This document shows positions 6,944 through 64,000 of a stretch of DNA of 64,000 nucleotides, piece after piece (the first letter of the stretch is position 1; the number at the start of each line of letters is the position of its first letter). Position numbers and translations under genes: made by a program. The DNA is from an uncultured bacterium (GTDB lineage Bacteria; Bacillota; CAZWXO01), in the NCBI GenBank assembly GCA_964637885.1, contig CAZWXO010000001.1, positions 111 to 64,110 on the forward strand. The letters are read 5' to 3'. The notes below the pieces were generated by a model. It had not been told where the DNA came from and searched no databases. It saw only the letters and a program-made list of their open reading frames with translations.

Positions 6944-7908
6944 ATATTCCTATCAGTCTAATGTACGCAGTGATTATAGCGATGTTCCTCAGTTTGGCCT
7001 TGGGCCCATTTTTGATTCGATTGCTACAGAGAATCAAGCTAGGGCAGAATATCAGAGAGGAAGGTCCTGAAAGTCATCAAATTAAGGCTGGCACCCCGAC
7101 GATGGGTGGAGTCTTGATTATTTTTTCAGTTTTGGTAGGCACAATTCCATTGGCGTGGAAGGATCAAGATGTTCTCTTCCTAATGGTTATCTTTGTTTGC
7201 TATGGCGGAATAGGATTCTTAGACGATTTAATGAAAACTTGGCGCCGGCATTCTTTAGGATTGCGGGCTTGGCAAAAGCTCGTGCTGCAAATTATTGTCG
7301 CCACTTTTTTTTCCTTCTATGTTTTTTTTGTTGCGGAGACCGGTCGCGGAATTTTCCTGCCTTTTGTTGACGGTTCTTTTGATTTGGGATTTTGGATTAT
7401 TCCCTTAATTATTTTGACGATGCTGGCGACGACCAATGCTGTTAATCTTACAGATGGCCTTGATGGTTTGGCAGCTGGGTTGAGTGGAATAGCTTTTATT
7501 GCAATGGTTCCGATCTTGTTAGCTTTATGGATGCCGTATTTTGCTCTGACGGCAGTGGCTGCAGTGGCTGCTTGTGTCGGCTTCATTTGGTACAACTTCT
7601 ACCCAGCTCAAATATTTATGGGGGATACAGGTTCACTTGCACTAGGAGGTTTGCTTGCAGGGATCGCATGCTTATCTGGTACCGAGTTTTTTCTGTTTTT
7701 CACTGGAGGGGTGTTTGTCCTCGAAGCTCTATCGGTTATTTTACAAGTGTCGTACTTTAAGTATAGTAACGGCAAGCGTATTTTTAAAATGAGCCCTTTA
7801 CACCACCACTTTGAATTGATCGGTTGGCCAGAAACCAAGGTAGTCATCCGATTTTGGATATTGTCAGTAGGTCTTAGCGCTGCAGGTGTATTCGTTTATT
7901 TTTTATGA
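6940..7908 (+). CDS. mraY: Phospho-MurNAc-pentapeptide translocase MraY
   Basis: Polytopic membrane protein with DD, NAVNLTDGLDGLA, MGDTGSLALG and HHHFE motifs. Confidence 0.93.
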   Translation: MNIPISLMYAVIIAMFLSLALGPFLIRLLQRIKLGQNIREEGPESHQIKAGTPTMGGVLIIFSVLVGTIPLAWKDQDVLFLMVIFVCYGGIGFLDDLMKTWRRHSLGLRAWQKLVLQIIVATFFSFYVFFVAETGRGIFLPFVDGSFDLGFWIIPLIILTMLATTNAVNLTDGLDGLAAGLSGIAFIAMVPILLALWMPYFALTAVAAVAACVGFIWYNFYPAQIFMGDTGSLALGGLLAGIACLSGTEFFLFFTGGVFVLEALSVILQVSYFKYSNGKRIFKMSPLHHHFELIGWPETKVVIRFWILSVGLSAAGVFVYFL

Positions 7909-7920
7909 GGAGAGGACTAA

Positions 7921-9309
7921 ATGGATTTTGCAAAAACTTTGATTAATAAGAAAGTATGGATTGTGGGCCTGGGTAAATCTGGCCTGGCTTGTGCTCGTGT
8001 GCTGGATAATTTAAGCTGCCAGTTAGTGCTTAGTGATTCTCGCGGCCTAGAATCTTTCACTGAAGGCAGCTTATCGGAGTACCATGTACGCGGTCATGAG
8101 TTTCGCTTTAACGATAATCTTGACAATTCACCGGATGCGCTTGATTACGTAATCTTGAGTCCGGGAATTTCTCCACACCTGCCTGTTTTTAACAGACTCC
8201 GAACTGCGAATATTCCGATAATAGGTGAGATTGAACTGGCTTATCGATTGGGTGGTGAGTTGAACATTGTAGGAATAACTGGCACAAATGGCAAAACAAC
8301 TACGACAGCCTTAGTAAAGGATATATTCGTGCAAGCCGGCTATGAAGCCTATGCTGTGGGAAATATTGGGCTTCCGCTCATCTCGGTTATTGAAAAAGCC
8401 GGCAACGATGCTGTTTTTGTTACTGAACTTTCTAGCTTTCAGTTAGAAACCACAGAATTGTTACGAGTTAAAGTTGCAGCAATTATTAACATTACCCCAG
8501 ACCATCTCGATCGACACGGTGATATGAAGAGCTATATTGAGGCCAAGGCCCGGATTTTGCGTAATCAAGGGCAGGACGATTTTGCGATTATCAATGAGGA
8601 TGATGAGTTTGTAGCTCCTTTACGGGAACAGTGTCGAGGGAAAGTTATTGGAATCAGCAGAAAAAATCTCGAAAATAGCGGTGTTTTTTTGAAAGATGGG
8701 GCGATCTATGTCAACTTCGATAATGTCGGGCAGTTTGTCATCAATCTCTCCGAGATAAAAATTCCGGGAATGCATAATGTGGAAAATTCTTTAATCGCGA
8801 TTGGATGCTGCTTAGCCTATGGCATCGATATAACTACGATGGCAAAGGTTCTAAAGAAATTCCCAGGTGTGCCACATCGACTCGAAGAAGTCGGGGTCGT
8901 GCGGAATATACGTTTTGTTAACGATTCCAAGGGGACCAATGTCGATGCTTCTTGCAAGGCATTGGATGCTTTTCATTGTCCAATTGTGTTAATAGCTGGC
9001 GGCCGAGGCAAGGGAGCTTCATATGGAGAATTTGCTGAAAAAATCAGCAAAAGCGTGGAATTTGTAATTTTAATTGGGGAAGATGCGGATCTTATCAGTC
9101 AAGCATTGAAAAGAGTTGCTTTTTTCGATTTTGCGTTTGCATCAAATATGTCTGATGCTGTCTCTAGTGCTTATCAGCATGCGAGAGAGGGCGGAATTGT
9201 CCTACTTTCTCCGGCCTGTGCAAGTTTTGATATGTATAAAAATTTTGAAGAAAGAGGAGAAGCTTTTACTTTTTGCGCCCGGAAATTGATTAGTGATGAA
9301 AATATATAG
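7921..9309 (+). CDS. murD: UDP-MurNAc-L-Ala:D-Glu ligase MurD
   Basis: GLGKSG Rossmann N-terminus and Mur ligase P-loop (GITGTNGKTTT); RBS GAGGAGAGG. Confidence 0.93.
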   Translation: MDFAKTLINKKVWIVGLGKSGLACARVLDNLSCQLVLSDSRGLESFTEGSLSEYHVRGHEFRFNDNLDNSPDALDYVILSPGISPHLPVFNRLRTANIPIIGEIELAYRLGGELNIVGITGTNGKTTTTALVKDIFVQAGYEAYAVGNIGLPLISVIEKAGNDAVFVTELSSFQLETTELLRVKVAAIINITPDHLDRHGDMKSYIEAKARILRNQGQDDFAIINEDDEFVAPLREQCRGKVIGISRKNLENSGVFLKDGAIYVNFDNVGQFVINLSEIKIPGMHNVENSLIAIGCCLAYGIDITTMAKVLKKFPGVPHRLEEVGVVRNIRFVNDSKGTNVDASCKALDAFHCPIVLIAGGRGKGASYGEFAEKISKSVEFVILIGEDADLISQALKRVAFFDFAFASNMSDAVSSAYQHAREGGIVLLSPACASFDMYKNFEERGEAFTFCARKLISDENI

Positions 9310-15824: not shown

Positions 15825-16556
15825 GTGTTGGGCGATCATAAACGTCTTATTTTAGTGGACGGGAACATTGCTTTTTGCAAGATGTTTCAGGAATACGTGG
15901 CATTTTATTCCGAGTTTAAGCTAGTGGGCGTTTTTCACAACGGGCTCGAGGCTGCACGGGAATGCCCTAACCTTTCTCCGGACATTATTGTGCTGGACAA
16001 TGCTGTGCCTTTCTTGGACGGTTTAAATTTATTGAAAGTGTTCCAAAAAAGTTTGTCATCAAAAAAACCAGTAATTATAATGTTAACCGCTTTTAGTCAG
16101 GAGAATGTCGCTCGACGAGCACTTGAATTGGGAGCGGATTGTTTTATGGCCAAACCTTTGGGTATGAATAATCTTGTCCATCGGATGCAACAACTGATTA
16201 AAGGCGACGTTTTCGTTGCGGACAGGAAAACAGAAACGATTGAAGCATATCTAATTTCTCTCGGATTAGATTCACATTTGCAGGGTTTTCGCTATTGTGT
16301 TGATGGGGTAAAAATATTGCTGGATTTTTCGCCACGATCGGCTAGCGGACTTGGAAAATATATCTATCATGAATTGTCGAGAGCTAACTCAAAATCAGTG
16401 GCGAGTATCGAGCGCTCGATGCGCTATGCAATTACAAACCGAATTGGCAGCACTCCAATTGTGGACAACGGTCAGACTAATGTCGCTTTTATTTATTCTA
16501 TTTATCGTGCGATGTCGGAGAAAGAGGTTTTCTCGGCATTGTACAGTGAAAGGTGA
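15825..16556 (+). CDS. Spo0A-family response regulator: REC domain plus Spo0A_C DNA-binding domain. The acidic pocket reads VDGN where Spo0A has ADDN.
   Basis: Colinear similarity to B. subtilis Spo0A. REC blocks: DIIVLDNAVPFLDGL and VIIMLTAFSQENVARRALELGADCFMAKP. C-terminal recognition helix: VASIERSMRYAITNRIG versus Spo0A ASRVERAIRHAIEVAWSRG. Likely start is GTG 15825, preceded by AAAGGGG; the track ATG 15786 overlaps ftsZ. Confidence 0.8.
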   Translation: MLGDHKRLILVDGNIAFCKMFQEYVAFYSEFKLVGVFHNGLEAARECPNLSPDIIVLDNAVPFLDGLNLLKVFQKSLSSKKPVIIMLTAFSQENVARRALELGADCFMAKPLGMNNLVHRMQQLIKGDVFVADRKTETIEAYLISLGLDSHLQGFRYCVDGVKILLDFSPRSASGLGKYIYHELSRANSKSVASIERSMRYAITNRIGSTPIVDNGQTNVAFIYSIYRAMSEKEVFSALYSER

Positions 16557-17685
16557 TATTTTGATTAACGGGATTGCCCGAATTAACAAGCGTACCAAAG
16601 AGTTAACAAAGATAATCAAGCCATCTGAAATCGCAGTTATCGATCACGATGACATTGATGAGGTATCAGCCAAGGCTTTAGTTTCCTGTCGAATTAAATG
16701 TGTTTTAAACGCAGCGCCATCGATTAGTGGCAAATATCCGAATCATGGCCCTTTGCACATGGTGGAGAATGGCATTTTTTTAATCGATAATTGTGGTGCG
16801 GAGCTTTTTGACAAGCTTGTTGAAGGCGCGGTTATTTCGATCAATGAAACAACTGGGGAAATATTGCAGAACGATAAAGTTTTGGTCAATGGACAACCCC
16901 AAAATGCGGAGTCGTTGAAGCTTCAAATGCTACAAGCAAAAGACAACGTCGCAGAGGAATTGGATCGATTTGTCGTAAATACACTGGAATTTGCGCGAAA
17001 TGAAATCGGTTTAATTACTGATGATTTATTGATGCCGGAGATGGAGACTGTTTTTAATGACAAGCACGCGTTAATTGTTGTTCGAGGGAAGTACTATAAA
17101 GAAGATCTGCAGGCCATCAGTTCCTATATCAAAGAACAACGGCCAGTACTTATCGGTGTCGATGGTGGAGCCGACGCTTTGCTGGAGATGGGTTTTGTTC
17201 CTGATGTTATTATTGGGGATATGGATAGCGTCTCAGATGCCGCATTGTGTTGCGGGGCCGAGCTGGTCGTTCATGCTTACCGCAATGGAATAGCACCTGG
17301 ACTGGAAAGGGTTCAGCAACAGGGGCTAAGTGCAAAAATTTTTGCTTCTGCTGGAACGAGCGAAGATATAGCGATGTTGATGGCATATGAATATCAGGCG
17401 AAATTAATTGTCGCCGTTGGAACACACTCAAACATGATTGATTTTTTGGAGAAGGGCCGGAAAGGGATGGCGAGTACATTTTTAGTTCGCCTTAAAGTCG
17501 GATCTATTCTTGTCGATGCCAGAGGGGTAGCCGAATTACAAAAAATGCGTTTTAAAAAACGTTATTTCGTCGCATTATTTTTTGCCGCTTTTATACCTTT
17601 GGCCTTGGTTATCGCGTTGTCCCCTGTTTTTATGCCAATGCTAAGCTTATTATTGATTAAGATACAGGTTATTTTAGGAATTTAG
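16546..17685 (+). CDS. steA: SteA-like putative cytokinetic-ring protein with a thiamine-pyrophosphokinase-like fold and a C-terminal TM anchor
   Basis: TPK-like motif (VLIGVDGGADALLEMGFVPDVIIGDMDSVSD) and a C-terminal hydrophobic helix; about 380 aa like actinobacterial SteA. Start is GTG 16546 or TTG 16561, overlapping the end of the regulator gene. The track ATG 16351 lies inside the upstream gene. Confidence 0.7.
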   Translation: MKGDILINGIARINKRTKELTKIIKPSEIAVIDHDDIDEVSAKALVSCRIKCVLNAAPSISGKYPNHGPLHMVENGIFLIDNCGAELFDKLVEGAVISINETTGEILQNDKVLVNGQPQNAESLKLQMLQAKDNVAEELDRFVVNTLEFARNEIGLITDDLLMPEMETVFNDKHALIVVRGKYYKEDLQAISSYIKEQRPVLIGVDGGADALLEMGFVPDVIIGDMDSVSDAALCCGAELVVHAYRNGIAPGLERVQQQGLSAKIFASAGTSEDIAMLMAYEYQAKLIVAVGTHSNMIDFLEKGRKGMASTFLVRLKVGSILVDARGVAELQKMRFKKRYFVALFFAAFIPLALVIALSPVFMPMLSLLLIKIQVILGI

Positions 17686-17691
17686 GAGATT

Positions 17692-18597
17692 TTGAGAATG
17701 ATCATCGATGTTAGATATCATGTTGCTTCTTTAGTAGCTGTGTTTTTAGCCCTTGCTTTAGGAATATTGATGGGCATGTCTTTGCTTAACGGGCAGAGCG
17801 TTTTGGAGAAGCAGCAGGAACTAGTAGAAAGCCTCCGCAGCGATTTTGAAAAATTAAAAGATGATAACGACGCCTTGCAGGCACATTTATCCCAGCTTGA
17901 CAGCAAAAATATCTCGGATGAAAAATTTATGCGCACGCTGCTTCCAGGCATTATAAAGGAGAAACTCGTCGACAAGAATTATCTTATAATTCGAACAAAT
18001 ACCGATGTCGATCTCAATGAACTCGCTTCAACGATTGTGTTAGCTGGGGGCAGCTCGGAGATGGTGATAACCTTTAAAGAAAATTTTCTGCAAATCCTAC
18101 AGAATCAATCAGACAAATATATTGATGCGTTTAATATCGACTGGAAAGAGGATCCAGAAGAGGACGCTGCTCAAATTATTGAGATAGTTTTCTCAATGCT
18201 TGGTGAAGCTGAAAACTCACGGGGCCTGGCTTTGTTGGAACAGTTACAAGCTGATGGAGCGGTCTCGTATAGTGGAAGATTGCAGACGCCTCCCAAGGGG
18301 GTTATTTTAGTTGGGGGTGCCAGCGCCGATGTCAATAATCTGGCAGGTGTAGACATACCAATAATTGAAATTTTGCGCTTGCGAGGGATTAGTGTAGTAG
18401 GTGTTGAAGAGTACCTAGTGCCATTGTCATACATCAAAGATTATCGAAAAAAGGGGATTTCGACTGTCGACAACATTGATTCAGTAGTTGGATTAATCTC
18501 GATGGTTGCAATCTTGAGTGGCGAGGAGGGCAACTATGGGCTCAAGGGAGGCTCCTCAGCCTTGATGCCTGTGATGGATAGTTGGATTACTGAATGA
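17692..18597 (+). CDS. steB: SteB/MctB-family ('copper transporter' DUF3186) membrane protein
   Basis: N-terminal TM segment then a long coiled coil; about 300 aa; follows steA by 7 nt, matching the steA-steB pairing described in Corynebacterium/Mycobacterium. Confidence 0.6.
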   Translation: MRMIIDVRYHVASLVAVFLALALGILMGMSLLNGQSVLEKQQELVESLRSDFEKLKDDNDALQAHLSQLDSKNISDEKFMRTLLPGIIKEKLVDKNYLIIRTNTDVDLNELASTIVLAGGSSEMVITFKENFLQILQNQSDKYIDAFNIDWKEDPEEDAAQIIEIVFSMLGEAENSRGLALLEQLQADGAVSYSGRLQTPPKGVILVGGASADVNNLAGVDIPIIEILRLRGISVVGVEEYLVPLSYIKDYRKKGISTVDNIDSVVGLISMVAILSGEEGNYGLKGGSSALMPVMDSWITE

Positions 18598-19259
18598 GTG
18601 AAATAATTGTATTAATGCCGGCTTACAATGAGTCGGATTTAATAGCGTCTACAGTTCAAGCTGTCGTAAAAGCTTGTCCTTTTGTCGATGTTTATGTTAT
18701 CGATGATGGATCGACAGACGATACAGCCCGTTGCGCGCAGGAAGCTGGTGCAAAAGTGATGCAAACACCATCAAATTTAGGAAAAGGTGGAGCACTAAAT
18801 TATGGTCTCGGAAAAATTGATGGTTTCAAGATAGTAGCTTTTCTAGACGCAGATCTGGGGGAATGTGCTGGTCAGGTGGCAGAGCTAATCGACTCTGTTC
18901 GGAGCGGCAATGCTGATATGGCGATTGCGGGCTTTCCCCCTGCCAAAATTAAAGGCGGCTTTGGTTTTGTCAAGCGTTTAGCACGGGACGGAATTTTGGA
19001 TAGGACGGGTGTATCGTTTAACTCTCCAATTTCAGGGCAAAGAGTCTTGCGCCAAGAAGTGATTGAAAAAATTGGTCCCATCGAAGAGGGATACGGAGCT
19101 GAAGTGGCCATGACTATCGATGCTTTGCGGGAAGGATTTAGTGTTGTTGAAATACCTCTGCAAATGAAACATCGGGAGTCGGGTAGGAATTTAAAGGGGT
19201 TTTTGCATCGCTGGCGTCAATACGTTCATATTCGAAGGGCATTGGCCAAAAGGCGGTGA
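18594..19259 (+). CDS. Small family-2 glycosyltransferase (polyprenyl-phosphate sugar synthase-like, DPM1/GtrB-like)
   Basis: MPAYNES ... DDGSTDDT ... DADL (DXD) motifs of GT-A fold GT2 enzymes; start overlaps the steB stop. Confidence 0.75.
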   Translation: MSEIIVLMPAYNESDLIASTVQAVVKACPFVDVYVIDDGSTDDTARCAQEAGAKVMQTPSNLGKGGALNYGLGKIDGFKIVAFLDADLGECAGQVAELIDSVRSGNADMAIAGFPPAKIKGGFGFVKRLARDGILDRTGVSFNSPISGQRVLRQEVIEKIGPIEEGYGAEVAMTIDALREGFSVVEIPLQMKHRESGRNLKGFLHRWRQYVHIRRALAKRR

Positions 19260-19268
19260 GAAGATACG

Positions 19269-20105
19269 ATGGATAGCAATCCTTATTTATTGTTTTTTTT
19301 GGGAAGTGGAGCTGCAATTTTCTGTGCCATTTTGGCCAGATATTTTTTATATCCGATGCTGTCAGCATGCCCTTATTTGCAACGACCCAATTACCGTCAG
19401 GAAATTGTTCCGATATCGGCCGGAATAATTTTTGTTTTTGCTGCGCTGCCGGTTCAAGCAGTTCTCTCAATCTATCAAATGCAAAACCGAACAATGTGGC
19501 TAACGTGGATGGCCTGTGTTTTGCTTTGTACTTTATTAGGTTTATTAGATGATATTGCTGGCAATCGTCATGACTCAGGTTTAAAAGGGCATTTGCGGGC
19601 TTTATTAAAAGAAGGTCGGCTCACGACTGGTGGGCTCAAAGCTGCAGGAGGTTTAATCATTGCTGTCTATGTTGCAGCACTTTTCACCCATAGTATTCTT
19701 GATTTCATGCTAGGTTCAGTTGCCGTTGCTCTATCAATTAATGTTATCAATATTTTTGACTTAAGACCCGGACGCGCTGGCAAGTCCTTTTTCTTTTTTT
19801 TGGCGCTAATTTTTCTTTTAGCGTCCTTCTCATGGGAGGTATTGAGCTATATTTTCCCGATTACAATTGCTCTACTGGTTTATTATCCCCTCGATGTGAA
19901 GGCACGTGCAATGATGGGGGATGCGGGGGCTAATGCCTTAGGGCTGTGCTTAGGTTTGACATCATTATGGTGCCTTTCTACTCTTTCTTTGTCGATTTAT
20001 GTACTTGTTTTATTCGTCATTCACGTAATTGCTGAAAAAAGTTCGATTACGGTAATCATCGAAAAAAATGCTTTGTTAAGAAAAATTGATCAGTTAGGAC
20101 GGTGA
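19269..20105 (+). CDS. Truncated MraY/WecA-family polyprenyl-phosphate sugar-1-phosphate transferase (PNPT, GT4 family), 278 aa
   Basis: Polytopic membrane protein with LLDDIAG (DD motif), NVINIFD and MGDAGANALGL, parallel to the MraY MGDTGSLALG. It is shorter than MraY/WecA and lacks the HHH loop. Confidence 0.65.
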   Translation: MDSNPYLLFFLGSGAAIFCAILARYFLYPMLSACPYLQRPNYRQEIVPISAGIIFVFAALPVQAVLSIYQMQNRTMWLTWMACVLLCTLLGLLDDIAGNRHDSGLKGHLRALLKEGRLTTGGLKAAGGLIIAVYVAALFTHSILDFMLGSVAVALSINVINIFDLRPGRAGKSFFFFLALIFLLASFSWEVLSYIFPITIALLVYYPLDVKARAMMGDAGANALGLCLGLTSLWCLSTLSLSIYVLVLFVIHVIAEKSSITVIIEKNALLRKIDQLGR

Positions 20106-22314: not shown

Positions 22315-22849
22315 GCGCACCATCGAACGTGAAGTGATATATTCAGGGAAAATAATTAGCTTGCATCGGGACAAAGTAATGCTTGATAATGGGCATGTAA
22401 CTTATCGTGAAGTCGTAACTCATCCGGGGGCAACGTGCGTTTTGCCGTGGAGTGCGGGACGGATTACTTTGGTGCAACAATACCGCAAGCCTGTTGAAGA
22501 AAATCTGTGGGAGATTCCAGCCGGCAAGTTAGAGCCAGGCGAGGATCCCCTGGAAAGTGCACAGAGGGAGCTATTGGAGGAAACAGGCCTACAGGCTCTA
22601 CAGATGCGATATTTAGGTAAATTTTATACTTCACCCGGTTTTTCGAGTGAGGTAATGCATGCATATATCGCCACTGATTTAAAACAGGCCTTGTCGAATC
22701 CGGATGATGATGAATTGCTGAGTATTAGATCTTTTTCTGTGGAGGAATTTGAGGAAATGATAAATGGCCAGAAAATATTAGATGGAAAAACTCTTCTGAC
22801 TTATTATCTGGCCAAGGTCGCTTTGGGTGAGGAGTTTGACTGGAAATGA
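22307..22849 (+). CDS. nudF: NUDIX hydrolase (ADP-ribose pyrophosphatase NudF-like)
   Basis: Nudix box GKLEPGEDPLESAQRELLEETG. Confidence 0.85.
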   Translation: MDERTIEREVIYSGKIISLHRDKVMLDNGHVTYREVVTHPGATCVLPWSAGRITLVQQYRKPVEENLWEIPAGKLEPGEDPLESAQRELLEETGLQALQMRYLGKFYTSPGFSSEVMHAYIATDLKQALSNPDDDELLSIRSFSVEEFEEMINGQKILDGKTLLTYYLAKVALGEEFDWK

Positions 22850-23553
22850 AAGCTCACAATATAAAAAACTGTCAACTTCATGAGCCGGCGATAATGATGG
22901 ACATGAATGCTAGCGGTGCGATGCGAGCCGCACTACGCGGTGATGTCGTCCTTATTGTGGATGTTATCGACATGTCGACATCGGCGGAGGCATTGTTGGA
23001 GCAAGGGCCTCTGGCCTTGTTTGGCGCAGCACTGGATTCAAGCTGTCCACCGGTTGCTGTTAACCCTTGGGGCATTGGCAAGTTGGCTAGTGAGCTCGCC
23101 AATGCAAATGGCGTTAACGTAGTTGTTGTTGCTGAGCCCCGTACAGACGAGATCAAAAGAATAGCAAGTATTTCGCAGCTATTGGCGGGTATAAAGTATG
23201 GCGGAGCGAAATACAGTGGGCCTTTCCCGAATATGGGATCTGAATTGGGGCAACTTGTTGATGCAGCAGGGCAAGTTGTCGTCATCGCTTCAGCTACTGG
23301 GGGAGTCGCCTGGGATGCGGCTCATTTGCACGGAGCTGCCTCTGTATTAACGGGGACTATTGCGCGGACAGTTGGCAAAAAAGGAGCGACCCCTGCGGAA
23401 ACCGCAGCTAGGCGTATTCTTGATGCGGCCCTGGCGCATCGCGTTGACATTTCTGTCATCGCTGCCAGTGGTAATTCTCTGGAGGATATTCTTGCATCCC
23501 AATATATTTACACGATTGTCAGGCAAAAATTAGCTGCTATGTCCAATGAATAA
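22846..23553 (+). CDS. Putative 2-phosphosulfolactate phosphatase family protein (ComB/YitC-like)
   Basis: VLIVDVIDMSTSAEALL resembles the ComB-family DVLRA(S/T)T N-terminal motif; length is about 235 aa. The assignment is tentative. Confidence 0.4.
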   Translation: MKAHNIKNCQLHEPAIMMDMNASGAMRAALRGDVVLIVDVIDMSTSAEALLEQGPLALFGAALDSSCPPVAVNPWGIGKLASELANANGVNVVVVAEPRTDEIKRIASISQLLAGIKYGGAKYSGPFPNMGSELGQLVDAAGQVVVIASATGGVAWDAAHLHGAASVLTGTIARTVGKKGATPAETAARRILDAALAHRVDISVIAASGNSLEDILASQYIYTIVRQKLAAMSNE

Positions 23554-43386: not shown

Positions 43387-43407
43387 AGTATAAATTAATA
43401 AAGTGTG

Positions 43408-43608
43408 AATTCTTCAGGGCAGGGTGAGGGTCGTAGACCCGATTCCCGACCGGCGGTAGCGCGAAAGCGGAGCCCGCGAGCCGAAAGGCAGATCTGGTGA
43501 CAGTCTTCTAAGCTGAATCCCAGAGCCGACAGTATAGTCTGGATGGAAGAAGAGATTCTGGTGCTGTGTCTATGTGCCCTCTTGAATTCATTTTCGGGAG
43601 GGTTTTTT
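43408..43608 (+). promoter_or_regulatory. FMN riboswitch (RFN element). The aptamer runs about 43408-43553; the expression platform has a CCCTC...GAGGG hairpin followed by a T6 run that sequesters the GGGAGGG Shine-Dalgarno sequence.
   Basis: Matches the conserved RFN core (GGGCAGGGTGA...CCCGACCGGCGGTAG...GAGCCCGCGAGC...CCGACAGTATAGTCTGGATGGAAGAAG) and sits upstream of ribD. Confidence 0.9.
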
Positions 43609-46990: not shown

Positions 46991-47641
46991 TTGATTTTGA
47001 TTGTAGGTGGAGGAGAAGTCAATCTAAAGCGATTGAGAAAGCATTGTCAGCACGCTAACACAATAATCGCAGCAGATAAAGGAGCCGATTATTTGCTGGG
47101 TATAGGGATCTTGCCTGATTATTTAATTGGCGATATGGATTCAGCTTCCGTAGCGACTATAAATAGTTGTTGTGAAGCAGCTAAATGTGAGATAATCAGG
47201 CATCTTCCAGAGAAAGATCAAACCGATGGCGAGCTGGCCATGATGCAGGCTATGACACTAAGTCCAGAAAAGATAGTATTTTGTGGGTCGCTTGGGGATC
47301 GGATAGATCACTCTTTAGCAAATATATTTTGTGCATCTTCTTTCGTTTTGAGTGGGGTTCAGATTTCTCTTGAAAGCAATTCTCAGGAAATGGTTTTACT
47401 TGCTGGTAAAATGCATTGCAGTGATTGGGGTATTGGGGAAACTGTATCCTTGCTTGCGTTAGGATCGAGTTGTTATGTTGAGAAAATAAAGGGTTTCAAA
47501 TATCCTCTGGTTGATAGGGAGTTACAGTCATCATCCTCATTGGGAATTAGCAATGAGATTGTAGATGCGAGCGTTGATGTTAATATTAAGTCGGGGATGG
47601 CGATGGTAATACGAGAGTTTGGTAAAGGAGAGTTTGAATGA
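46991..47641 (+). CDS. thiN: Thiamine pyrophosphokinase ThiN
   Basis: TPK catalytic motif (IGDMDS) and a C-terminal TPK_B1-binding domain; TTG start; matches the rpe-thiN synteny of Bacillus. Confidence 0.8.
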   Translation: MILIVGGGEVNLKRLRKHCQHANTIIAADKGADYLLGIGILPDYLIGDMDSASVATINSCCEAAKCEIIRHLPEKDQTDGELAMMQAMTLSPEKIVFCGSLGDRIDHSLANIFCASSFVLSGVQISLESNSQEMVLLAGKMHCSDWGIGETVSLLALGSSCYVEKIKGFKYPLVDRELQSSSSLGISNEIVDASVDVNIKSGMAMVIREFGKGEFE

Positions 47642-47973
47642 TGTATGACACTTGGGTATGGCGGATGGTTGTCAATTTTTCTTACGTTTTTGCCGCAATC
47701 TTTGCGGTCTTGGTCCTGGCAAAATCGATGGGTAGCCTTGAGAAGGCATTGCAAGGTGGAAATGCTAAAGGAGCAAGGTTAGCAATGTTAGTAATGGGCA
47801 TTTGTTCGCTGGGAGTGGGGTATGCAGTCGCCTCTTTTTTTGGAACATTCTTGAACTTCCCTAACTTAATTATTAAAATTCTAATTATTGCGTCAATGGG
47901 TGGGATAATATTTAATAGTTCCAAGCGCTATATCGAAAAAATCGTTAGACAACAAAATTTACCTGCAAAATAA
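47638..47973 (+). CDS. Small hypothetical membrane protein (3 predicted TM helices)
   Basis: ORF coupled to the thiN stop and followed directly by a strong terminator; I recognised no family. Confidence 0.45.
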   Translation: MMYDTWVWRMVVNFSYVFAAIFAVLVLAKSMGSLEKALQGGNAKGARLAMLVMGICSLGVGYAVASFFGTFLNFPNLIIKILIIASMGGIIFNSSKRYIEKIVRQQNLPAK

Positions 47974-48607: not shown

Positions 48608-48991
48608 ATGGAAACACAACCGGAAATGTCTAAAAGCAAATTAAATATATCGGAAGATGTTGTTTCGACAATTGCGGGAGTTGCCGCCATGGAGTGTTTC
48701 GGAGTTGTAGGAATGTCGACGCGTAACCTTAAAGAAGGCATCACAGAGTTACTACGCAAAGATAATGTGCACAAAGGTATTGATATTTCGATTCTTGAAA
48801 ACAAGGTGATTGTTACACTTTTTATAGTTGTTGCATACGGTGTCAAGATTTCAGAAGTTGCACAAAATATTCAGGAAAAGGTCAAATTCAGCATCGAAAA
48901 CATGACTGGAATGGAAGTGGAAAGTGTTAACGTGAACGTTACCGGAGTACGCCCCGACAGTGAAGAGCAAGGAGGAAACCGCAATCAATGA
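48608..48991 (+). CDS. Asp23/Gls24-family alkaline shock/envelope stress protein (YloU-like)
   Basis: DVVSTIAGVAAMECFGVVGM Asp23 signature; precedes yloV as in Bacillus. Confidence 0.85.
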   Translation: METQPEMSKSKLNISEDVVSTIAGVAAMECFGVVGMSTRNLKEGITELLRKDNVHKGIDISILENKVIVTLFIVVAYGVKISEVAQNIQEKVKFSIENMTGMEVESVNVNVTGVRPDSEEQGGNRNQ

Positions 48992-50622
48992 CGCATGATT
49001 ACGGAGCAAACGAACTTGCAGGAATGATGCTTGCTGCAAAAAAATTACTTGATGAGCACCGCAGCGAAATAGACGCGCTCAATGTATTTCCTGTTCCTGA
49101 CGGGGACACAGGTTTAAACATGTCGTTGACGATGCAATCTGCCTGCGACGAAATAAGCAAAATTTCAAACAAAGACGATCTTTTAATGGTTTGTCAGGCG
49201 ATAGCAAAGGGTTCGCTTATGGGCGCCAGGGGGAATTCAGGGGTTATTTTGTCACAAATATTTCGCGGCTTTACGAAGAGTATCAGCACATCTAATTCAT
49301 TTGATGCGCAGAGCTTTGCTTTGGCATTGCGTGATGGAGTTTCAGTGGCCTATAAATCAGTTATGAAGCCTGTAGAGGGTACTATTTTGACAGTCTCTCG
49401 AGAAGCTTCCACTGCTGCTTGTCAAAGAGCTGAGGCTGGCGATGACTTTGTCACGGTAATCGCTGAAGCAGTGCAACAGGCAGATGTTGCACTGCGCAAG
49501 ACGCCTGAGTTGCTACCGGTACTTCAGGAAGCAGGAGTAGTGGATGCTGGAGGAATGGGTTTTTTGCAAATACTCCGCGGTTTTTACCATTTTATCGCTG
49601 GAGAAGATGGTAGCTTAGAAAATTACGACAGCGATTTTTTATCAAGAATTGATAATCATAGTTCCAATGATTACATGAGATATTTTTCCCTCGAGGAAAT
49701 CGTTCATCGATATTGCTCCGAGGTGATGATTTACGACGTCAAGCAAGACCTTTCACATAATATTGAAGAAAGATTGGCTGCTCTAGGAGATTCGTTGGTC
49801 ATTGTCCCAGATGAGAATACTCTTAAGATCCACGTGCATACCAATTATCCCGACCAATTATTATCTCTGTGCATGGGCATTGGTGGAATTGGCAATGTCA
49901 AAATTGAGAATATGCATTTACAATTTTTACATAGGCAAAAGAAGTCTTCAAGAGAGATCGTGGAAGGTGTTGGAATAATTGCGATATGTGCCGGCGAAGG
50001 AATAGCCGATTTTTTTCGTGGTCTTGGCGCTGCATATATTCTTAATGGCGGCCAAACAATGAATCCAAGTACGGAACAGATTGTAGCGGCTATCAAGGAT
50101 TCTAACTACAGCGATGTTGTGGTTTTGCCAAACAACAGTAATATCATTATGGCCGCCCAGCAGGCCATCGATTTGTGTCCGGACCAAAGAGTCAAGGTGT
50201 TACCGACAAAAACCATTCCACAGGGAATAAGCGCAATGCTTGAATATGCTGATGATAAAGCTTTGGAAGACAACTACATACGGATGGAAACAGCTTTGCA
50301 CAATGTGCAGACCGTGGAAATAACATTTGCTGTTAGGGATACTGTCAATAATGGAATTGAGATCAAAAAAGGTGATGTAATTGGACTGTTGGATGGAAAA
50401 ATTGTAAAGACGGGTCACGATAAAGACGATATCATCGTAGAGATGCTGTGCGAGATACTAAAAGCGGGAAAGGAAATTGTCACCGTGATTGCTGGCGAGG
50501 GTGTGGCAGAAAGTGAAACTGCGGCGCTGATGAAAAGGCTGCAAGAGGTGGACGAAACAGTCGAGTTTGAGTTGTATTATGGTGGACAGCCACTGTACCA
50601 TTATATTATTTCAATAGAATGA
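48988..50622 (+). CDS. yloV: DAK2-domain fusion protein YloV (DegV/fatty-acid-kinase-related)
   Basis: N-terminal Dak2 domain (DGDTGLNM) plus a C-terminal DegV-like domain; conserved asp23-yloV pairing. Confidence 0.85.
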   Translation: MTHDYGANELAGMMLAAKKLLDEHRSEIDALNVFPVPDGDTGLNMSLTMQSACDEISKISNKDDLLMVCQAIAKGSLMGARGNSGVILSQIFRGFTKSISTSNSFDAQSFALALRDGVSVAYKSVMKPVEGTILTVSREASTAACQRAEAGDDFVTVIAEAVQQADVALRKTPELLPVLQEAGVVDAGGMGFLQILRGFYHFIAGEDGSLENYDSDFLSRIDNHSSNDYMRYFSLEEIVHRYCSEVMIYDVKQDLSHNIEERLAALGDSLVIVPDENTLKIHVHTNYPDQLLSLCMGIGGIGNVKIENMHLQFLHRQKKSSREIVEGVGIIAICAGEGIADFFRGLGAAYILNGGQTMNPSTEQIVAAIKDSNYSDVVVLPNNSNIIMAAQQAIDLCPDQRVKVLPTKTIPQGISAMLEYADDKALEDNYIRMETALHNVQTVEITFAVRDTVNNGIEIKKGDVIGLLDGKIVKTGHDKDDIIVEMLCEILKAGKEIVTVIAGEGVAESETAALMKRLQEVDETVEFELYYGGQPLYHYIISIE

Positions 50623-50650
50623 TTGCTGGACGAGAGAAAAGGTGGGAATA

Positions 50651-52288
50651 ATGCCGGAAATATCTGACCAATTATTACGCGCGACTATAGCAAAGAATTT
50701 TAGTGAAATAAAGGCGGATTTACCTGCTAATGTTTCGCAAAAGGCTTACGTTGAGGCGGTTGTCGTCGCCTTGCAGCAGGGCCGAATGTCGGTTAAATTC
50801 GGCGATTTGCTGGTAGAGTTGGCGTCACTTGCTGGTGTTCGCCCTGGTGATAGTTTTCCCGCTCTAATGATTGAACAGAATGGTGATTTGTCTCTTATGA
50901 CAAAAACACCTCGTTTTGCAAATATAAATGGCTTACCTCTGGAAGTAACGGGTAAAATCGCAGCGTTTAAAGAAAACGACAATGGGCCGACAATTCTGTT
51001 AAGATGTCCAATTGAAGGGAAGGATATAACTAATGCTTTGCGCGGAGTAAATTGGGGTAATTTTGAAATCCAATCTATCGATGGGCAAGGAAAAATGCAA
51101 CTCGTCTCTGGAGATGCCGTTTTTGAGGGCCATTCAGATGATTACTTACTAGTTCCGGGCACGAAAGGTCGAATTGAGCTCCAAAGCATCGATAAGCAGG
51201 AAGTCATTTTTAAACTTAGTCCTAGGGTAACCGACGACGCAATAGTTAGAGAAATCTCACAAAAAACCGGGCTAAAAGCAGATCTCGTTTTAAAAGAGGT
51301 AGTTAGCGCGTTGATTGCCAAGGGAGTTCCGCTACATTCAGAAACCATAGTAGGAATGGTAGAGAAGCTGAGTCTCTTAATGGAAACCAAGGTGGACATC
51401 GGGAATGCTGCTGAGGTGCGACATTTAGCTGCTGCCATGGCTACAATGCAAAAGGCTAATTTGCCGATAGATGACGCTTTTGTAAGGGATCTAGGTGCGT
51501 TCTTAAAGGATCCGATGCTGTTGGGGCAGAGGTTGTCCGAGCTTGGCATGGAAGTAGCTAAGAATGCGAGTGCTCTTTTTTTTGCTGGCAATGTTGATCA
51601 AAAGCTTGCAAATCTGCAGGAACTTTTTCTACTACATGGCGGTACTATTACGCCAACAGCCAGCAAAGAAGGTGCTCTGGAAATAGAGTCCTTTGTGAAG
51701 GATTTTTTTATGTCCGGGGAAAATAAAAACTCTGCTGATAATGCGGCAATTTTAAAGCAGTTGCTCTTAAAATTACCGCAATCAGACGCTATGAGCTTGC
51801 AAATAATTACGCCTGATGAAGAGAAAATTCGAGAGTTGTTACCTCTAGCCACCTCATTAATCGGAGCGAGTCATGCGCAAATGGCTGGCGTTGATGAGAA
51901 TGGTGTCAATTTCCTTAGTTTCTCTTTGCCGATGGCATCGAGGGAACAAGGATTGCCGAATTCCATCAGAATAGAATATAAAGATGAAAATGGCAAAAAT
52001 AAGATAGATTGGCAAAACTGTAAGATCATATTAAAAATGAAAACACGTAACTTGTCGGAATTGCAAATCGATTTAGAATTCCGCAAAGGTGTGCTTTCCT
52101 GCCAAGTAGCAGCCATTGAAGAATACGGCATGCGTCGGATATCTGCTACTAAAGAGGAGCTTCGGGATAGCCTTGAATCTGCTGGGTTTACAGTTGGTAT
52201 GATTTTAACACGGTTGTTGCGAAAATTGCCGGAGGAGAATGGATCGCAGTTAAATAATCGGTCTTTCGGCTTCGATTTTAAGGTGTAG
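50651..52288 (+). CDS. YlqG-like hypothetical protein with a FliK-like (Flg_hook) C-terminal domain
   Basis: The C-terminal segment (NLSELQIDLEFRKGVLSCQVAAIEEYGMRRISATKEELRDSLESAGFTVG) parallels the FliK C-domain pattern (L.I.L. ... ARF...SH..R..LE..LP.LR..L...GL). ATG 50651 is preceded by AAAGGTGGG. Confidence 0.55.
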   Translation: MPEISDQLLRATIAKNFSEIKADLPANVSQKAYVEAVVVALQQGRMSVKFGDLLVELASLAGVRPGDSFPALMIEQNGDLSLMTKTPRFANINGLPLEVTGKIAAFKENDNGPTILLRCPIEGKDITNALRGVNWGNFEIQSIDGQGKMQLVSGDAVFEGHSDDYLLVPGTKGRIELQSIDKQEVIFKLSPRVTDDAIVREISQKTGLKADLVLKEVVSALIAKGVPLHSETIVGMVEKLSLLMETKVDIGNAAEVRHLAAAMATMQKANLPIDDAFVRDLGAFLKDPMLLGQRLSELGMEVAKNASALFFAGNVDQKLANLQELFLLHGGTITPTASKEGALEIESFVKDFFMSGENKNSADNAAILKQLLLKLPQSDAMSLQIITPDEEKIRELLPLATSLIGASHAQMAGVDENGVNFLSFSLPMASREQGLPNSIRIEYKDENGKNKIDWQNCKIILKMKTRNLSELQIDLEFRKGVLSCQVAAIEEYGMRRISATKEELRDSLESAGFTVGMILTRLLRKLPEENGSQLNNRSFGFDFKV

Positions 52289-52290
52289 GT

Positions 52291-52599
52291 GTGATGACAG
52301 ATAATAAAAGCGGTAGTAAAAAAATGGAAAAAGCTGTTGCTTTAGGCTACATTCCAGGAAAAGACGGGGCGCCGCGGGTGCTTGCTTCAGGAAAAGGGAC
52401 TATCGCTGAAGCAATTGCTGAAATTGCGCGAGAACACGGAGTGCCTTTTTATCAGGATGCGGCGTTAGTGGATTCATTAATTAACTTACAGATAAATGCT
52501 GAGATTCCCATCGAGTTATATGAAGCGATCGCGCACGTGCTCGCTTACGTATATTCTTTGGATATTCGAGAAGAAAAAAACAAGGGGGCATTGAACTAG
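52291..52599 (+). CDS. FlhB C-terminal-domain homologue (YlqH-like; EscU/YscU/FlhB-C family)
   Basis: About 100-aa protein with a conserved AVALGY...APRVLASGKG..AE.I...A.EHGVP core like the FlhB-C autocleavage domain. I do not see the canonical NPTH tetrad. Confidence 0.65.
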   Translation: MMTDNKSGSKKMEKAVALGYIPGKDGAPRVLASGKGTIAEAIAEIAREHGVPFYQDAALVDSLINLQINAEIPIELYEAIAHVLAYVYSLDIREEKNKGALN

Positions 52600-52605
52600 A
52601 TTATT

Positions 52606-53184
52606 GTGCAAATTATAGCTGGTATTCACAAGGGAAGAAAAATTATTGCACCTCATGGGATGAAAACGCGGCCAACAGGAGCTCGAGTGCGGGAATCGTT
52701 GTTTTCTATTCTTGGGCAGAGAAATGAAGGGGCAGAGGTTTTAGATTTATTTGCCGGAAGTGGTGCGCTAGGTATCGAATCGATGAGTCGAGGGGCTGCG
52801 AAAGTTGTATTTGTCGATAACTCTAGCGGGGCAGCAGACGCAATCAGAAATAATTGTCAGACTTTGAAGATTGAATTTGCCAAGATCGTCAAGAAAGATG
52901 TCCTTGCCTTTCTCAAAGGAAATAAGACGAAGAATCAATTTGACCTAATTTTTGCTGATCCTCCGTATAATAAAAATTTTCCAAAAGAGATATTAGAGTT
53001 AGTTGACGAGTATGGATGGTTAAGGGAGAATGGCATCTTAGTGGTGGAGGAAAGTGCCAAAGCCATAATTGAAGAAAAAATCGGGAATATTTTATTACAA
53101 GACCGAAGAAACTATGGTGATACTTGCTTGTTTTTTTTCGGTTTGCAAAAGGAGAATAAACATGAGAGCGGTTTATCCGGGTAG
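52606..53184 (+). CDS. rsmD: 16S rRNA m2G966 methyltransferase RsmD
   Basis: IIAG..KGRKI N-terminus, DLFAGSGALGIE SAM motif, DPPY catalytic motif. Confidence 0.88.
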   Translation: MQIIAGIHKGRKIIAPHGMKTRPTGARVRESLFSILGQRNEGAEVLDLFAGSGALGIESMSRGAAKVVFVDNSSGAADAIRNNCQTLKIEFAKIVKKDVLAFLKGNKTKNQFDLIFADPPYNKNFPKEILELVDEYGWLRENGILVVEESAKAIIEEKIGNILLQDRRNYGDTCLFFFGLQKENKHESGLSG

Positions 53185-53638
53185 CTTTGATCCAGTTACA
53201 AATGGGCATCTCGATATTTTGGAGAGGGCTTCGCAGTTATTTGAGCATGTGACGGTAGCCGTGGTTAACAACGTCAACAAACACCCACTTTTTTCAACCG
53301 ACGAAAGAGTTGCGATGCTGAAAAAATGCACGAGAGAGATGCCCTCCGTCACGGTTGGAAGCTTTGACGGGTTGTTAATTGATTATGTGCGGTCTCAGCA
53401 AGCTGGTGCGATTATTCGCGGATTGCGCGCGATTTCAGATTTTGAATATGAATTTCAGATTAATGCGGTAAATAAAAAACTTGCCCCGGACATCGAAACG
53501 GTTTTTTTAATGACTGCCAATGAATACGCATATTTGAGCTCCAGCATTGTCAAAGAGGTTGCCTCTTTTAGGGGTTGTATTGATGGCTTGGTTCCCGATT
53601 TTGTTAAAAAGATGATCCAATCCAAATTGGTTGGTTAA
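53162..53638 (+). CDS. coaD: Phosphopantetheine adenylyltransferase
   Basis: YPGSFDPVTNGHLDI (HxGH) motif; ATG 53162 has an AGGAGA RBS. The track ORF extends to 53069. Confidence 0.93.
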   Translation: MRAVYPGSFDPVTNGHLDILERASQLFEHVTVAVVNNVNKHPLFSTDERVAMLKKCTREMPSVTVGSFDGLLIDYVRSQQAGAIIRGLRAISDFEYEFQINAVNKKLAPDIETVFLMTANEYAYLSSSIVKEVASFRGCIDGLVPDFVKKMIQSKLVG

Positions 53639-53652
53639 GGAGGTGGTGGATC

Positions 53653-54114
53653 GTGGATTTTTTACAGGTAATAAATGATTTAATAACCAATCTAGAGGAG
53701 AGTCCGAAAGTACCTGTCTTCGGAAGACGATTACTCGACGAAGAAACTGTGCTGGAAATGTTGGATCGCATTAAAGCAAATCTTCCCGATGAATTTATTC
53801 AGGCTCAAAGGATTATTGAACAGCGAGAACAAATAATCTCTGAAGCTAAGTTGGAAGGCGAAGGAATAATCAAAGAAAATGAAGCCTTAGGTAATCGCCT
53901 GGCAGGAGAGAATGAGATAACAAAAAAAGCGCAAGCGCTGGCCGATCAATTGATAATGGAGGCTAAGAAGGTAGCCGGAGAGACTGTCAATGGCGCGAAT
54001 GCTTACGCTGATAGCGTCCTCGAGAAACTTGAAGAATCAATGCTCAACAATTTGCAGATGATTAAGAAGAGCCGAGGAAAACTTAATGCGATGCGTCGGG
54101 AAGCTCACTCGTGA
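53653..54114 (+). CDS. Hypothetical coiled-coil protein, 153 aa
   Basis: Highly charged and heptad-rich with no TM segment; converges on and overlaps the tmcAL 3' end by 10 nt. I recognised no family. Confidence 0.4.
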   Translation: MDFLQVINDLITNLEESPKVPVFGRRLLDEETVLEMLDRIKANLPDEFIQAQRIIEQREQIISEAKLEGEGIIKENEALGNRLAGENEITKKAQALADQLIMEAKKVAGETVNGANAYADSVLEKLEESMLNNLQMIKKSRGKLNAMRREAHS

Positions 54115-60142: not shown

Positions 60143-61090
60143 ATGTTAGGAGCTAGACTTAAAGAACTTTTAAAAATTGATTATCCGATAATACAGGGGG
60201 CCATGGCGTGGATCGCGGATGCACGCCTTGCTGCAGCGGTTTCTAATGCGGGTGGTTTGGGAATTATCGCTTCGGCAACCATGAACAAAGATCAGTTGGA
60301 TGCTGAAATAACAAAAATAAGAGCATTGACTGACAAGCCTTGGGGGATTAATATCTATTATCTTTCGGAGCATCTGGACGATGTTATTGACTTGGTTGTT
60401 GAAAGAAAGATTCCTGTCGTAACCACTGGCGCGGGCAATCCTGGGAAACATATCTCTGCCTTAAAAAATGCCGGCACAAAAGTTATTCCTGTTGTGTCCT
60501 CTGTGGCACTCGCCAGACGCCTGGAGAGGGTAGGCGTCGATGCGATCATTGCCGAGGGGATGGAAGGTGGAGGACATATCGGAGATTTGACAACAATGTC
60601 GCTGGTTCCACAAATCGCAGACGCTATAAAAATTCCAGTTATTGCTGCAGGTGGCGTCGTTGAAGGACGCACATTGCTAGCTGCCTTTGTTCTTGGCGCT
60701 GAAGGCGTTCAGATTGGGACTCGTTTTTTATGTTCGACTGAATGTCCGATTCATGAAAATTACAAAAATGCGATTATTAAAGCTAGCGACCGTTCGACAG
60801 TAATTACTGGTGCAAGATATGGTCATCCCGTACGTATTTTGCAAAATAAGCTGGCAAAGAGCATTCTTCGTCTCGAAGAGGCTGGTGCGGCGATTGAAGA
60901 TGTTCAACATGTTACTGTCGGCACTTTAAAGCTTGCTGTCGAGTCCGGCGATGTGGAAAACGGTTCGCTTATGGCGGGACAGTCTAGTGCGATGGTCACA
61001 AAAATTCAGCCTGTTCAAGAAATTGTGCAGGAAATGTATAATGAGGCGAATGAAGCCTACAAGCGACTTAAGGATGCTATGGAGGGGTAA
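60143..61090 (+). CDS. fabK: Enoyl-ACP reductase II FabK (FMN-dependent, NMO/2-nitropropane dioxygenase fold)
   Basis: IIQGAMAWIADARLAAAVSNAGGLGII N-terminus and the GGH motif of the FabK/NMO family; located between fabH and fabD. Confidence 0.8.
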   Translation: MLGARLKELLKIDYPIIQGAMAWIADARLAAAVSNAGGLGIIASATMNKDQLDAEITKIRALTDKPWGINIYYLSEHLDDVIDLVVERKIPVVTTGAGNPGKHISALKNAGTKVIPVVSSVALARRLERVGVDAIIAEGMEGGGHIGDLTTMSLVPQIADAIKIPVIAAGGVVEGRTLLAAFVLGAEGVQIGTRFLCSTECPIHENYKNAIIKASDRSTVITGARYGHPVRILQNKLAKSILRLEEAGAAIEDVQHVTVGTLKLAVESGDVENGSLMAGQSSAMVTKIQPVQEIVQEMYNEANEAYKRLKDAMEG

Positions 61091-63114: not shown

Positions 63115-64000
63115 TTGATTCTGCCCAAATTGAAAATTGGAAAACATGTTGCTGAACTACCAATAATTCAAGGTGGTATGGCAGTCAGGATATCAACCGC
63201 AAAATTGGCAGCTGCTGTGGCAAATGAGGGTGGAATCGGTATCATTGCTGCCACGGGGATGTCGTTTGATGAATTGCGAGAGGAAATCCGCGAAGCTCGT
63301 TCGTTGACGAAAGGCATTATTGGGATTAACGCTATGGTGGCCGTCAGTATTTTCCCTGATTATATTCGAACAGCTATGGAAGAAGGGATTGATCTTGTCC
63401 TCGCTGGCGCTGGATTTTCTCGGGATATGTTTGCCATGGGACGCGAATTTGGAGTGGCGATAGTTCCGATTGTTTCGAGTGCTAAGCTAGCAATCATTTC
63501 TGAAAAGCTTGGAGCTGATGCGGTTGTTGTCGAAGGTAAAGAGGCGGGCGGGCATCTTGGAACTGATGAGTCGGTGTGGAAGCTGGTTCCAGAAGTTAGG
63601 GCGGCTGTTTCAATCCCCGTTATTGGCGCAGGTGGCATCGTTGACGGCTATGACATTGTAAAAATGCTTCAAGCTGGTGCGGATGGTGTACAGATGGGCA
63701 TCCGATTCGCGATGAGTGAAGAATGCGCCGCAGATGACCGCTGGAAAGCAGTCTGCCTCGAAGCTAAAAACGAAGACATTGTTTTAATCGATAGCCCAGC
63801 TGGTTTTCCAGGTCGGGCCATTAAAACTGAGTTTATAGAAAAAGCCATGGATGGAGGTGCACCTCCCCCTGATGCCTGCATTAATTGCTTGCGGCATTGC
63901 ACGAAGAGCTTCTGCATCTTTAAAGCTTTGCGAAATTCCCAAGAAGGCAATATTGAAGAGGGAGTTGTTTTTTCTGGCGAAAATGTTGGAAAAATCAATG
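63115..64000 (+). CDS. Second FabK/nitronate-monooxygenase-family protein, partial (3' end runs beyond the window)
   Basis: TTG 63115 is preceded by AAAGGGTGA. PIIQGGMAVRISTAKLAAAVANEGGIGII and GGHLG motifs. No ATG-start ORF is listed, but the frame stays open to position 64000. Confidence 0.7.
   Translation, partial: MILPKLKIGKHVAELPIIQGGMAVRISTAKLAAAVANEGGIGIIAATGMSFDELREEIREARSLTKGIIGINAMVAVSIFPDYIRTAMEEGIDLVLAGAGFSRDMFAMGREFGVAIVPIVSSAKLAIISEKLGADAVVVEGKEAGGHLGTDESVWKLVPEVRAAVSIPVIGAGGIVDGYDIVKMLQAGADGVQMGIRFAMSEECAADDRWKAVCLEAKNEDIVLIDSPAGFPGRAIKTEFIEKAMDGGAPPPDACINCLRHCTKSFCIFKALRNSQEGNIEEGVVFSGENVGKIN

Follow-up and report, generated by a model that had tools for sequence, protein, structure and literature searches.

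The stretch of DNA analysed here, referred to as the window, comprises 64,000 nucleotides (nt) of contig CAZWXO010000001.1 from an uncultured bacterium (GenBank assembly GCA_964637885.1). Its forward strand holds two adjoining open reading frames (ORFs), 50642/50651-52288 followed by 52291/52294-52599, which encode a large FliK-like protein and a small protein, FlhX (Table 1). An earlier reading of the locus, made from the letters alone and called the sequence-only reading below, had described a protein of 548 amino acids (aa) followed after 2 nt by one of 102 aa. The longest ORF of the FliK-like gene, starting with GTG at 50642, indeed encodes 548 aa, but this codon falls within the putative ribosome binding site (RBS) AGGTGG, and therefore the ATG at 50651 is the likely start. 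It gives a protein of 545 aa, was the start coordinate given in that reading itself, and was likewise chosen in the JGI gene call on a near-identical contig. For the second gene, an ORF of 102 aa does begin 2 nt downstream of the FliK-like stop codon if GTG 52291 is used, while the JGI call places the start at ATG 52294, thereby leaving 101 aa and a gap of 5 nt. The FlhX RBS read from the sequence sits inside the upstream gene, which suggests that the two genes are translationally coupled.

The small protein is FlhX, which is soluble and homologous to the part of FlhB that follows the cleavage site (FlhB_CC). It matches Pfam Bac_export_2 with an E-value of 3.5e-19, the match covering only model positions 262-335 of 335, and with its 101-102 aa it has neither a transmembrane part nor FlhB_CN. 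The freestanding FlhB switch domain lacking the membrane part, as proposed earlier, was thus recovered, and the traits of full-length FlhB/SctU proteins, i.e. the N-terminal four-helix membrane domain and the NPTH autocleavage site, were not found in it. The best NCBIfam model was TIGR00789 (flhB_rel) with 95.2 bits, compared to 68.3 bits for the full-length FlhB model; according to the note on the TIGR00789 family, its members are restricted to genomes in which FlhB is present as well. In a comparison with sequences of the PDB, FlhB_CC chains were matched (E 1.7e-12). From residue 15 onward, FlhX aligns with chain B of 3b1s and 3b0z (Aquifex/Salmonella FlhB_C crystals), and this chain is the polypeptide freed by autocleavage. 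Superposition of the AlphaFold2 (AF2) model of FlhX (pLDDT 84.8) with chain B of 3b0z/3b1s resulted in a root mean square deviation (rmsd) of 1.5-1.7 Å and TM scores of 0.83-0.85. The CC chains of YscU, PscU and EscU gave TM scores of 0.8-0.87 at lower sequence identity; FlhX is 41-43% identical to flagellar FlhB versus 26-28% to SctU. As already noticed in the sequence-only reading, NPTH is absent, its position reading KKME. Since none of 65 short FlhX homologues carries NPxH or PTH, the missing cleavage site is a property of the family. The segment A-P-[RK]-V-x-A-x-G is invariant or near-invariant in 36 aligned FlhX members.

In the large protein, a switch domain of the FliK type (T3S4) is combined with the C-terminal end motif of FliK. 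Its direct match to Pfam Flg_hook reaches 17.3 bits at a cutoff of 29.8 and is sub-threshold, and word-indexed searches, including a profile search, returned two close copies only. With HMMER, 19 relatives at E <= 0.001 were obtained from 1.84 billion representatives, all of them over the C-terminal ~120 residues. Aligned with the query, these gave 20 sequences, 18 of which match Flg_hook at E <= 0.01, several above the cutoff; the closest distant relative (P0004, 29% identity) scores 37.9 bits. When the family profile was compared with the PDB, Salmonella FliK (2rrl) was the top sequence match (E 0.006), and the family also matched E. coli FliK at residues 261-317 (29 bits). Foldseek with the AF2 model of the large protein yielded the T3S4 domain of PscP (5cuk) as best hit, with an rmsd of 1.9 Å over 66 columns and FliK-C in 11th place, the E-values not being significant alone. 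Homology to FliK-C, postulated in the sequence-only reading, is thus weak in the direct comparison and solid through the family evidence. The T3S4 core is 93% identical to that of the close orthologue and 36-38% to those of distant ones. In the alignment, L471 and I473 of the large protein occupy the positions of V302 and I304 in Salmonella FliK, beta2 residues which were photo-crosslinked to FlhB_C (PMC6972891). The end of the protein, G-F-D-F-K-V (52268-52285), corresponds to G-V-D-I-F-A at the end of E. coli FliK, and the Asp of this motif is invariant in all ten aligned relatives. The idea that the FliK-like tail mimics the FlhB_CN strand preceding NPTH and completes the FlhX sheet was dropped, canonical FliK having the same tail motif. 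Two of the distant relatives match DUF6240 weakly.

Outside the core, the large protein is less well defined. Its AF2 model has a pLDDT of 54 and is poor outside residues ~440-528, the N-terminal half being not interpretable. The first 192 residues evolve fast, with 18-22% identity to the syntenic orthologues, which have in common an N-terminal start M-x-I-S/N. For the middle of the protein, helices were predicted at moderate to low confidence. Proline, glutamine and threonine account for 3.7%, 4.4% and 3.9% of its residues, compared to 8.8%, 9.6% and 10.7% for E. coli FliK.

The pair is closely packed with housekeeping genes. The start of the FliK-like gene lies 28 nt behind the fakA stop codon, rsmD follows FlhX directly, and the yloV/FakA and RsmD-CoaD neighbours named for this ylqG/ylqH-type pairing in the sequence-only reading were confirmed by Pfam. 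No convincing terminator and no strong promoter were found between the pair and the adjoining asp23, fakA, rsmD and coaD genes. Because of this and the tight spacing, the pair reads as part of an asp23-fakA-pair-rsmD-coaD housekeeping operon. Since the pair is settled in such an operon, it is probably expressed constitutively in this lineage and not from a flagellar promoter. The sigma-28 type motif TAAA-N13-17-CCGATA had 0 matches in the window, a result that is uninformative by itself. The start of rsmD is ambiguous, with 165 aa in the JGI call (internal start) versus 192 aa both in the ENA assemblies and in the longest ORF.

Table 1. Coordinates of the gene pair, its sub-regions and the adjoining operon genes in the window
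Feature	Position	Strand	Remarks
asp23	48608-48991	+	upstream operon partner; Pfam Asp23
fakA/yloV	48988-50622	+	upstream operon partner; Pfam Dak2, FakA-like_M, FakA-like_C
RBS AGGTGG	50640-50645	+	5 nt 5' of ATG 50651; alternative GTG 50642 inside; read from sequence
FliK-like (FliK2/YlqG-type) gene	50651-52288	+	545 aa; stop codon 52286-52288
N-terminal region, aa 1-192	50651-51226	+	predicted beta-rich, low confidence; AF2 pLDDT 30-59
Central helical region, aa 193-411	51227-51883	+	AF2 helices 198-414; conserved L-P motifs in alignment
T3S4/Flg_hook core, aa 412-525	51884-52225	+	most conserved region
C-terminal tail	52226-52285	+	low-confidence model; last ~20 residues AF2 pLDDT < 50
FlhX RBS AAGGTG	52280-52285	+	within last codons of FliK-like gene; read from sequence
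FlhX gene	52294-52599	+	101 aa from ATG (JGI call); 102 aa if GTG 52291
rsmD	52606-53184	+	downstream operon partner; Pfam Cons_hypoth95; begins 6 nt past FlhX stop
coaD	about 53162-53638	+	downstream operon partner; Pfam CTP_transf_like; overlapped by rsmD

Among the related contigs that were compared, JGI contig Ga0207193_1000018 shares 99.95% identity with the window. Several exact protein sequences of the window (FakA, YceD, FtsZ and the FliK-like protein) are on record from an NCBI contig instead, and the window is therefore from a sister assembly of this population. A second population from another JGI metagenome (L050) has the same gene order over 22 kilobases (kb); there, the FliK-like orthologue again has 545 aa and is 83% identical, with a nonsynonymous divergence (dN) of 0.103, and FlhX is 88% identical (dN 0.090). 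For 22 neighbouring genes, dN values of 0.02-0.185 were obtained in the same comparison, in which synonymous divergence (dS) was saturated and rate ratios are therefore only indicative. Both proteins of the pair thus change amino acids no faster than their housekeeping neighbours. The order fakA-pair-rsmD-coaD is kept with intact ORFs in four related contigs (L044, L050, L052 and ERZ22666135), in which FlhX is 62-90% identical, with 69% in L044 and 62% in both L052 and ERZ22666135, the two contigs that carry P0028. In the three more distant ones of these (L044, L052 and ERZ22666135), a T3S4 protein of 589-594 aa is encoded between fakA and FlhX-rsmD-coaD. Across lineages, aligned FlhX proteins are 56-60% identical, and the partner proteins 21-24% overall, with 14-22% identity in their N-terminal and central regions.

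These data also bear on the question of whether the pair might be left over, in decay, from a flagellar system that was lost, or might consist of ORFs that arose by chance. The large protein is very divergent, as reflected by its 19 relatives in a database of that size, which would fit such an origin. On the other hand, the ORFs are intact and the length of the FliK-like protein is identical in both populations, the dN values of the pair do not exceed those of the housekeeping neighbours at identities of 83% and 88%, conservation within the protein is highest in the T3S4 region, and the arrangement is kept in four further contigs. The comparison of dN values and the regional conservation effectively refute this explanation, which we consider scarcely credible.

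The adjacency of a FliK-like gene and FlhX spans distant lineages. In 6 of the 7 FlhX contexts examined, a T3S4 ORF was located directly upstream of FlhX. In one of the metagenome loci (L048), the pair ends a flagellar cluster with the order fliM-fliN-sigma factor-...-FliK-like-FlhX. Between the sigma factor gene and the pair of this locus (7459-8735), proteins of 104 aa and 306 aa are encoded, the latter with a faint match to DUF6115; both are possible additional partners of the module there. In another locus (L046), FlhX has no FliK-like partner and is located between csrA and fliOP, beside flgBC-fliE-fliQR and a full-length flhB, and in a third one (L053), the pair lies amid non-flagellar genes. 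A further 77 loci (L055-L131) from a metagenome scan with an alignment of 8 FlhX sequences were discarded as spurious, as no FlhB-C-like ORF was detected in them by hidden Markov model search.

Pairs of this kind are also found in the literature. In P. putida, the genes were named fliK2-flhX, their transcription is FliA-dependent and their function is uncharacterised, and in some pseudomonads fliK2-flhX is unlinked from the flagellar cluster (bioRxiv 10.1101/2021.08.29.457346). Nitratiruptor has a flhX-fliK pair outside the main cluster (PMC9321776). Two comparative studies counted FlhX among the flagellar export proteins (PMC10746217, PMC9321776), and the Salmonella/B. subtilis query proteins of one of them include FlhX (PMC10746217). 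A location apart from other flagellar genes is therefore usual for the pair and says little about its function.

Based on these results, the pair most likely works as an accessory module for the type III export apparatus of a flagellum, the genes of which would lie elsewhere in the genome. The T3S4 domain would bind FlhX in the same way as FliK_C binds FlhB_C, and FlhX could thereby take the position of FlhB_CC at the export gate. This is reported for FlhX of H. pylori, a 'spare part' which permits export when FlhB_CC is deleted (Wand et al. 2006, as cited in the P. putida study). Alternatively, FlhX might titrate the interaction between FliK and FlhB. In either case, the pair would be a copy of the specificity switch that can be exchanged for it or buffers it, and would thus tune or back up the change from hook-type to filament-type export.

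Several observations weigh against an assignment to flagellar export. The TIGR00789 score of FlhX (95.2 bits) is below the model cutoff of 117.35, and we read FlhX as a divergent member of this family, not as a non-member. The large protein is unlike a classical secreted ruler, as it is not rich in proline and glutamine and its middle is predicted to be helical. In line with the sequence-only reading, no flagellar homologues were detected in the 64 kb of the window or in the next 10.7 kb, for which a gene map inspected by eye and a small reference panel were used. Unlike the FliA-dependent operon of Pseudomonas, the pair is located here with fakA, rsmD and coaD and has no sigma-28 type motif. 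Finally, both the binding of FlhX by the T3S4 domain and the action at the export gate are steps that we infer.

If a flagellum is present, the large protein could also be the only FliK of the organism, i.e. a true hook-length control protein that was displaced together with FlhX from the flagellar cluster. The T3S4 core, the residues equivalent to V302 and I304 and the terminal motif of FliK would be expected of such a protein, and both the Nitratiruptor flhX-fliK pair outside the cluster (PMC9321776) and the FliK-like gene at the end of the flagellar operon in L048 are consistent with it. However, the composition and the predicted helical middle are unlike those of known FliK rulers, and it would be strange if a protein that is secreted at a set stage of hook assembly were constitutively co-transcribed with fakA and rsmD. 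Moreover, the paired protein of P. putida is a second FliK-like protein beside a canonical fliK. The same is true for B. subtilis. Taking both sides together, we regard the displaced-FliK explanation as unlikely.

It is also conceivable that the organism has no flagellum and keeps the pair for a task unrelated to flagella; the two proteins could, for instance, be a regulatory module expressed with the lipid/RNA housekeeping genes. T3S4 protein and FlhB_CC copy would then form a self-contained module that shares a transcript with fakA, rsmD and coaD and operates independently of type III secretion machines. The embedding in the housekeeping operon, which is conserved over the lineage down to an FlhX identity of 62%, argues for this, as do dN values no higher than those of the neighbours, the failure to find flagellar genes in about 75 kb, and the non-flagellar surroundings of the pair in L053. 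Against it stand the published accounts, which treat FlhX as flagellar, the restriction of TIGR00789 members to FlhB-containing genomes stated in the family note, and the fact that scattered flagellar loci are common and that 75 kb cover little of a genome. In B. subtilis, a flagellated organism, the pair likewise lies among housekeeping genes. A role in an organism devoid of flagella thus appears quite improbable. The proposal of the sequence-only reading that the pair is an orphan which may work outside flagella was not supported either: the missing NPTH site is normal for short FlhX proteins, linkage to flagellar genes was found in L048 and L046, and fliK2-flhX as well as flhX-fliK pairs have been published.

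The locus is a further example of the known pair of FliK paralogue and FlhX, and its setting in a housekeeping operon is unusual. The pair has been reported from Pseudomonas and Campylobacterota and is found here in an organism with Firmicutes-type gene order and in unidentified metagenome lineages. The locus adds that the pair can be fixed inside a housekeeping operon, in this case in one uncultured lineage, that FlhX evolves slowly while its partner has retained only the T3S4 core and the terminal motif, and that both proteins keep residues which align with the contact between FliK_C and FlhB_C. The fixation in the operon, the slowly evolving FlhX and the conserved contact residues support the model of direct binding. 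The locus would be important only if the organism proved to be non-flagellated.

Regarding the other content of the window, the gene map comprises the dcw cluster, ftsZ, xerD, priA, fmt, prkC, the rib operon, fakA, rsmD, coaD, ackA and fapR-plsX-fab, followed in the next 10.7 kb by acpP, fabF, rnc, smc, ftsY, ffh and rpsP. A scan of genome contigs with the neighbouring FakA gave matches of 33-49% identity in Leuconostoc, Fructobacillus and Thermotogota, none of them close. About 0.5 kb past ftsZ (16351-20105, + strand), genes for a SteA-like protein (TPK_catalytic and SteA-like_C), an MctB-family protein and GT2 and GT4 glycosyltransferases are located; many spore-forming Firmicutes have spoIIGA-sigE-sigG at the corresponding position, and the genes found here may be a hint to the lineage. 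An FMN riboswitch (RF00050, 89.9 bits; 43406-43558, + strand) lies directly 5' of the ribD-ribE-ribBA-ribH operon and was the sole match in an Rfam scan of the window, in which tRNA genes were not found.

Behind coaD, a protein of 153 aa (53653-54114, + strand) is encoded, which belongs to no Pfam family and has merely a weak ATP-synt_B-like coiled-coil match. The two populations share 95% identity in this protein (dN 0.027), and all syntenic contigs have a counterpart of 150-154 aa after coaD. Two genes for NMO-family (FabK-like) enoyl-ACP reductases, at 60143-61090 and at 11083-12027 of L132 (about window 63115-64000), bracket fabD-fabG-acpP inside the fapR-plsX-fab cluster. Two further proteins were without a Pfam match: a hydrophobic, probably membrane-bound protein of 111 aa (47638-47973, + strand) after the thiamin pyrophosphokinase gene, and a protein of 235 aa (22846-23553, + strand) encoded 5' of xerD.

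Compared with canonical FliK of Salmonella and E. coli, the large protein shares the T3S4 core, residues aligned with the beta2 contacts to FlhB, and the G-x-D-x-x-[AV] end, but it has no Pro/Gln-rich flexible linker and instead a middle predicted to be helical. FlhX matches the FlhB_CC fold and the A-P-[KR]-V-x-A-x-G motif of canonical FlhB and differs from it by the lack of the transmembrane domain, of FlhB_CN and of NPTH. In contrast to the canonical genes, neither of the two genes is part of a flagellar operon. The injectisome proteins SctP/SctU (YscP/YscU, PscP/PscU) have the same two interacting folds as the pair, whereas FlhX is nearer to flagellar FlhB by sequence and no injectisome genes were found near the pair. 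FlhX of H. pylori (HP1575) is a free-standing FlhB_CC-like protein like the one described here; its gene is not known to adjoin fliK (HP0906).

The present pair is of the kind called ylqG-ylqH in Bacillus subtilis, where a protein of ~500 aa is followed by an FlhB-C homologue of ~90 aa among housekeeping genes outside the fla/che operon. The neighbours of ylqG-ylqH are rnhB and sucC, in contrast to fakA and rsmD here, and the two loci are likened by description. The same kind of comparison, also by description, can be drawn with fliK2-flhX of P. putida, which is transcribed under FliA control and in most cases forms part of the flagellar cluster, compared to the fakA-rsmD-coaD operon in our case. 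There, too, a FliK-C-only homologue, encoded by the ORF immediately upstream of flhX (PP_4329), is followed in one operon by a short FlhB-C homologue, in the same gene order as here.

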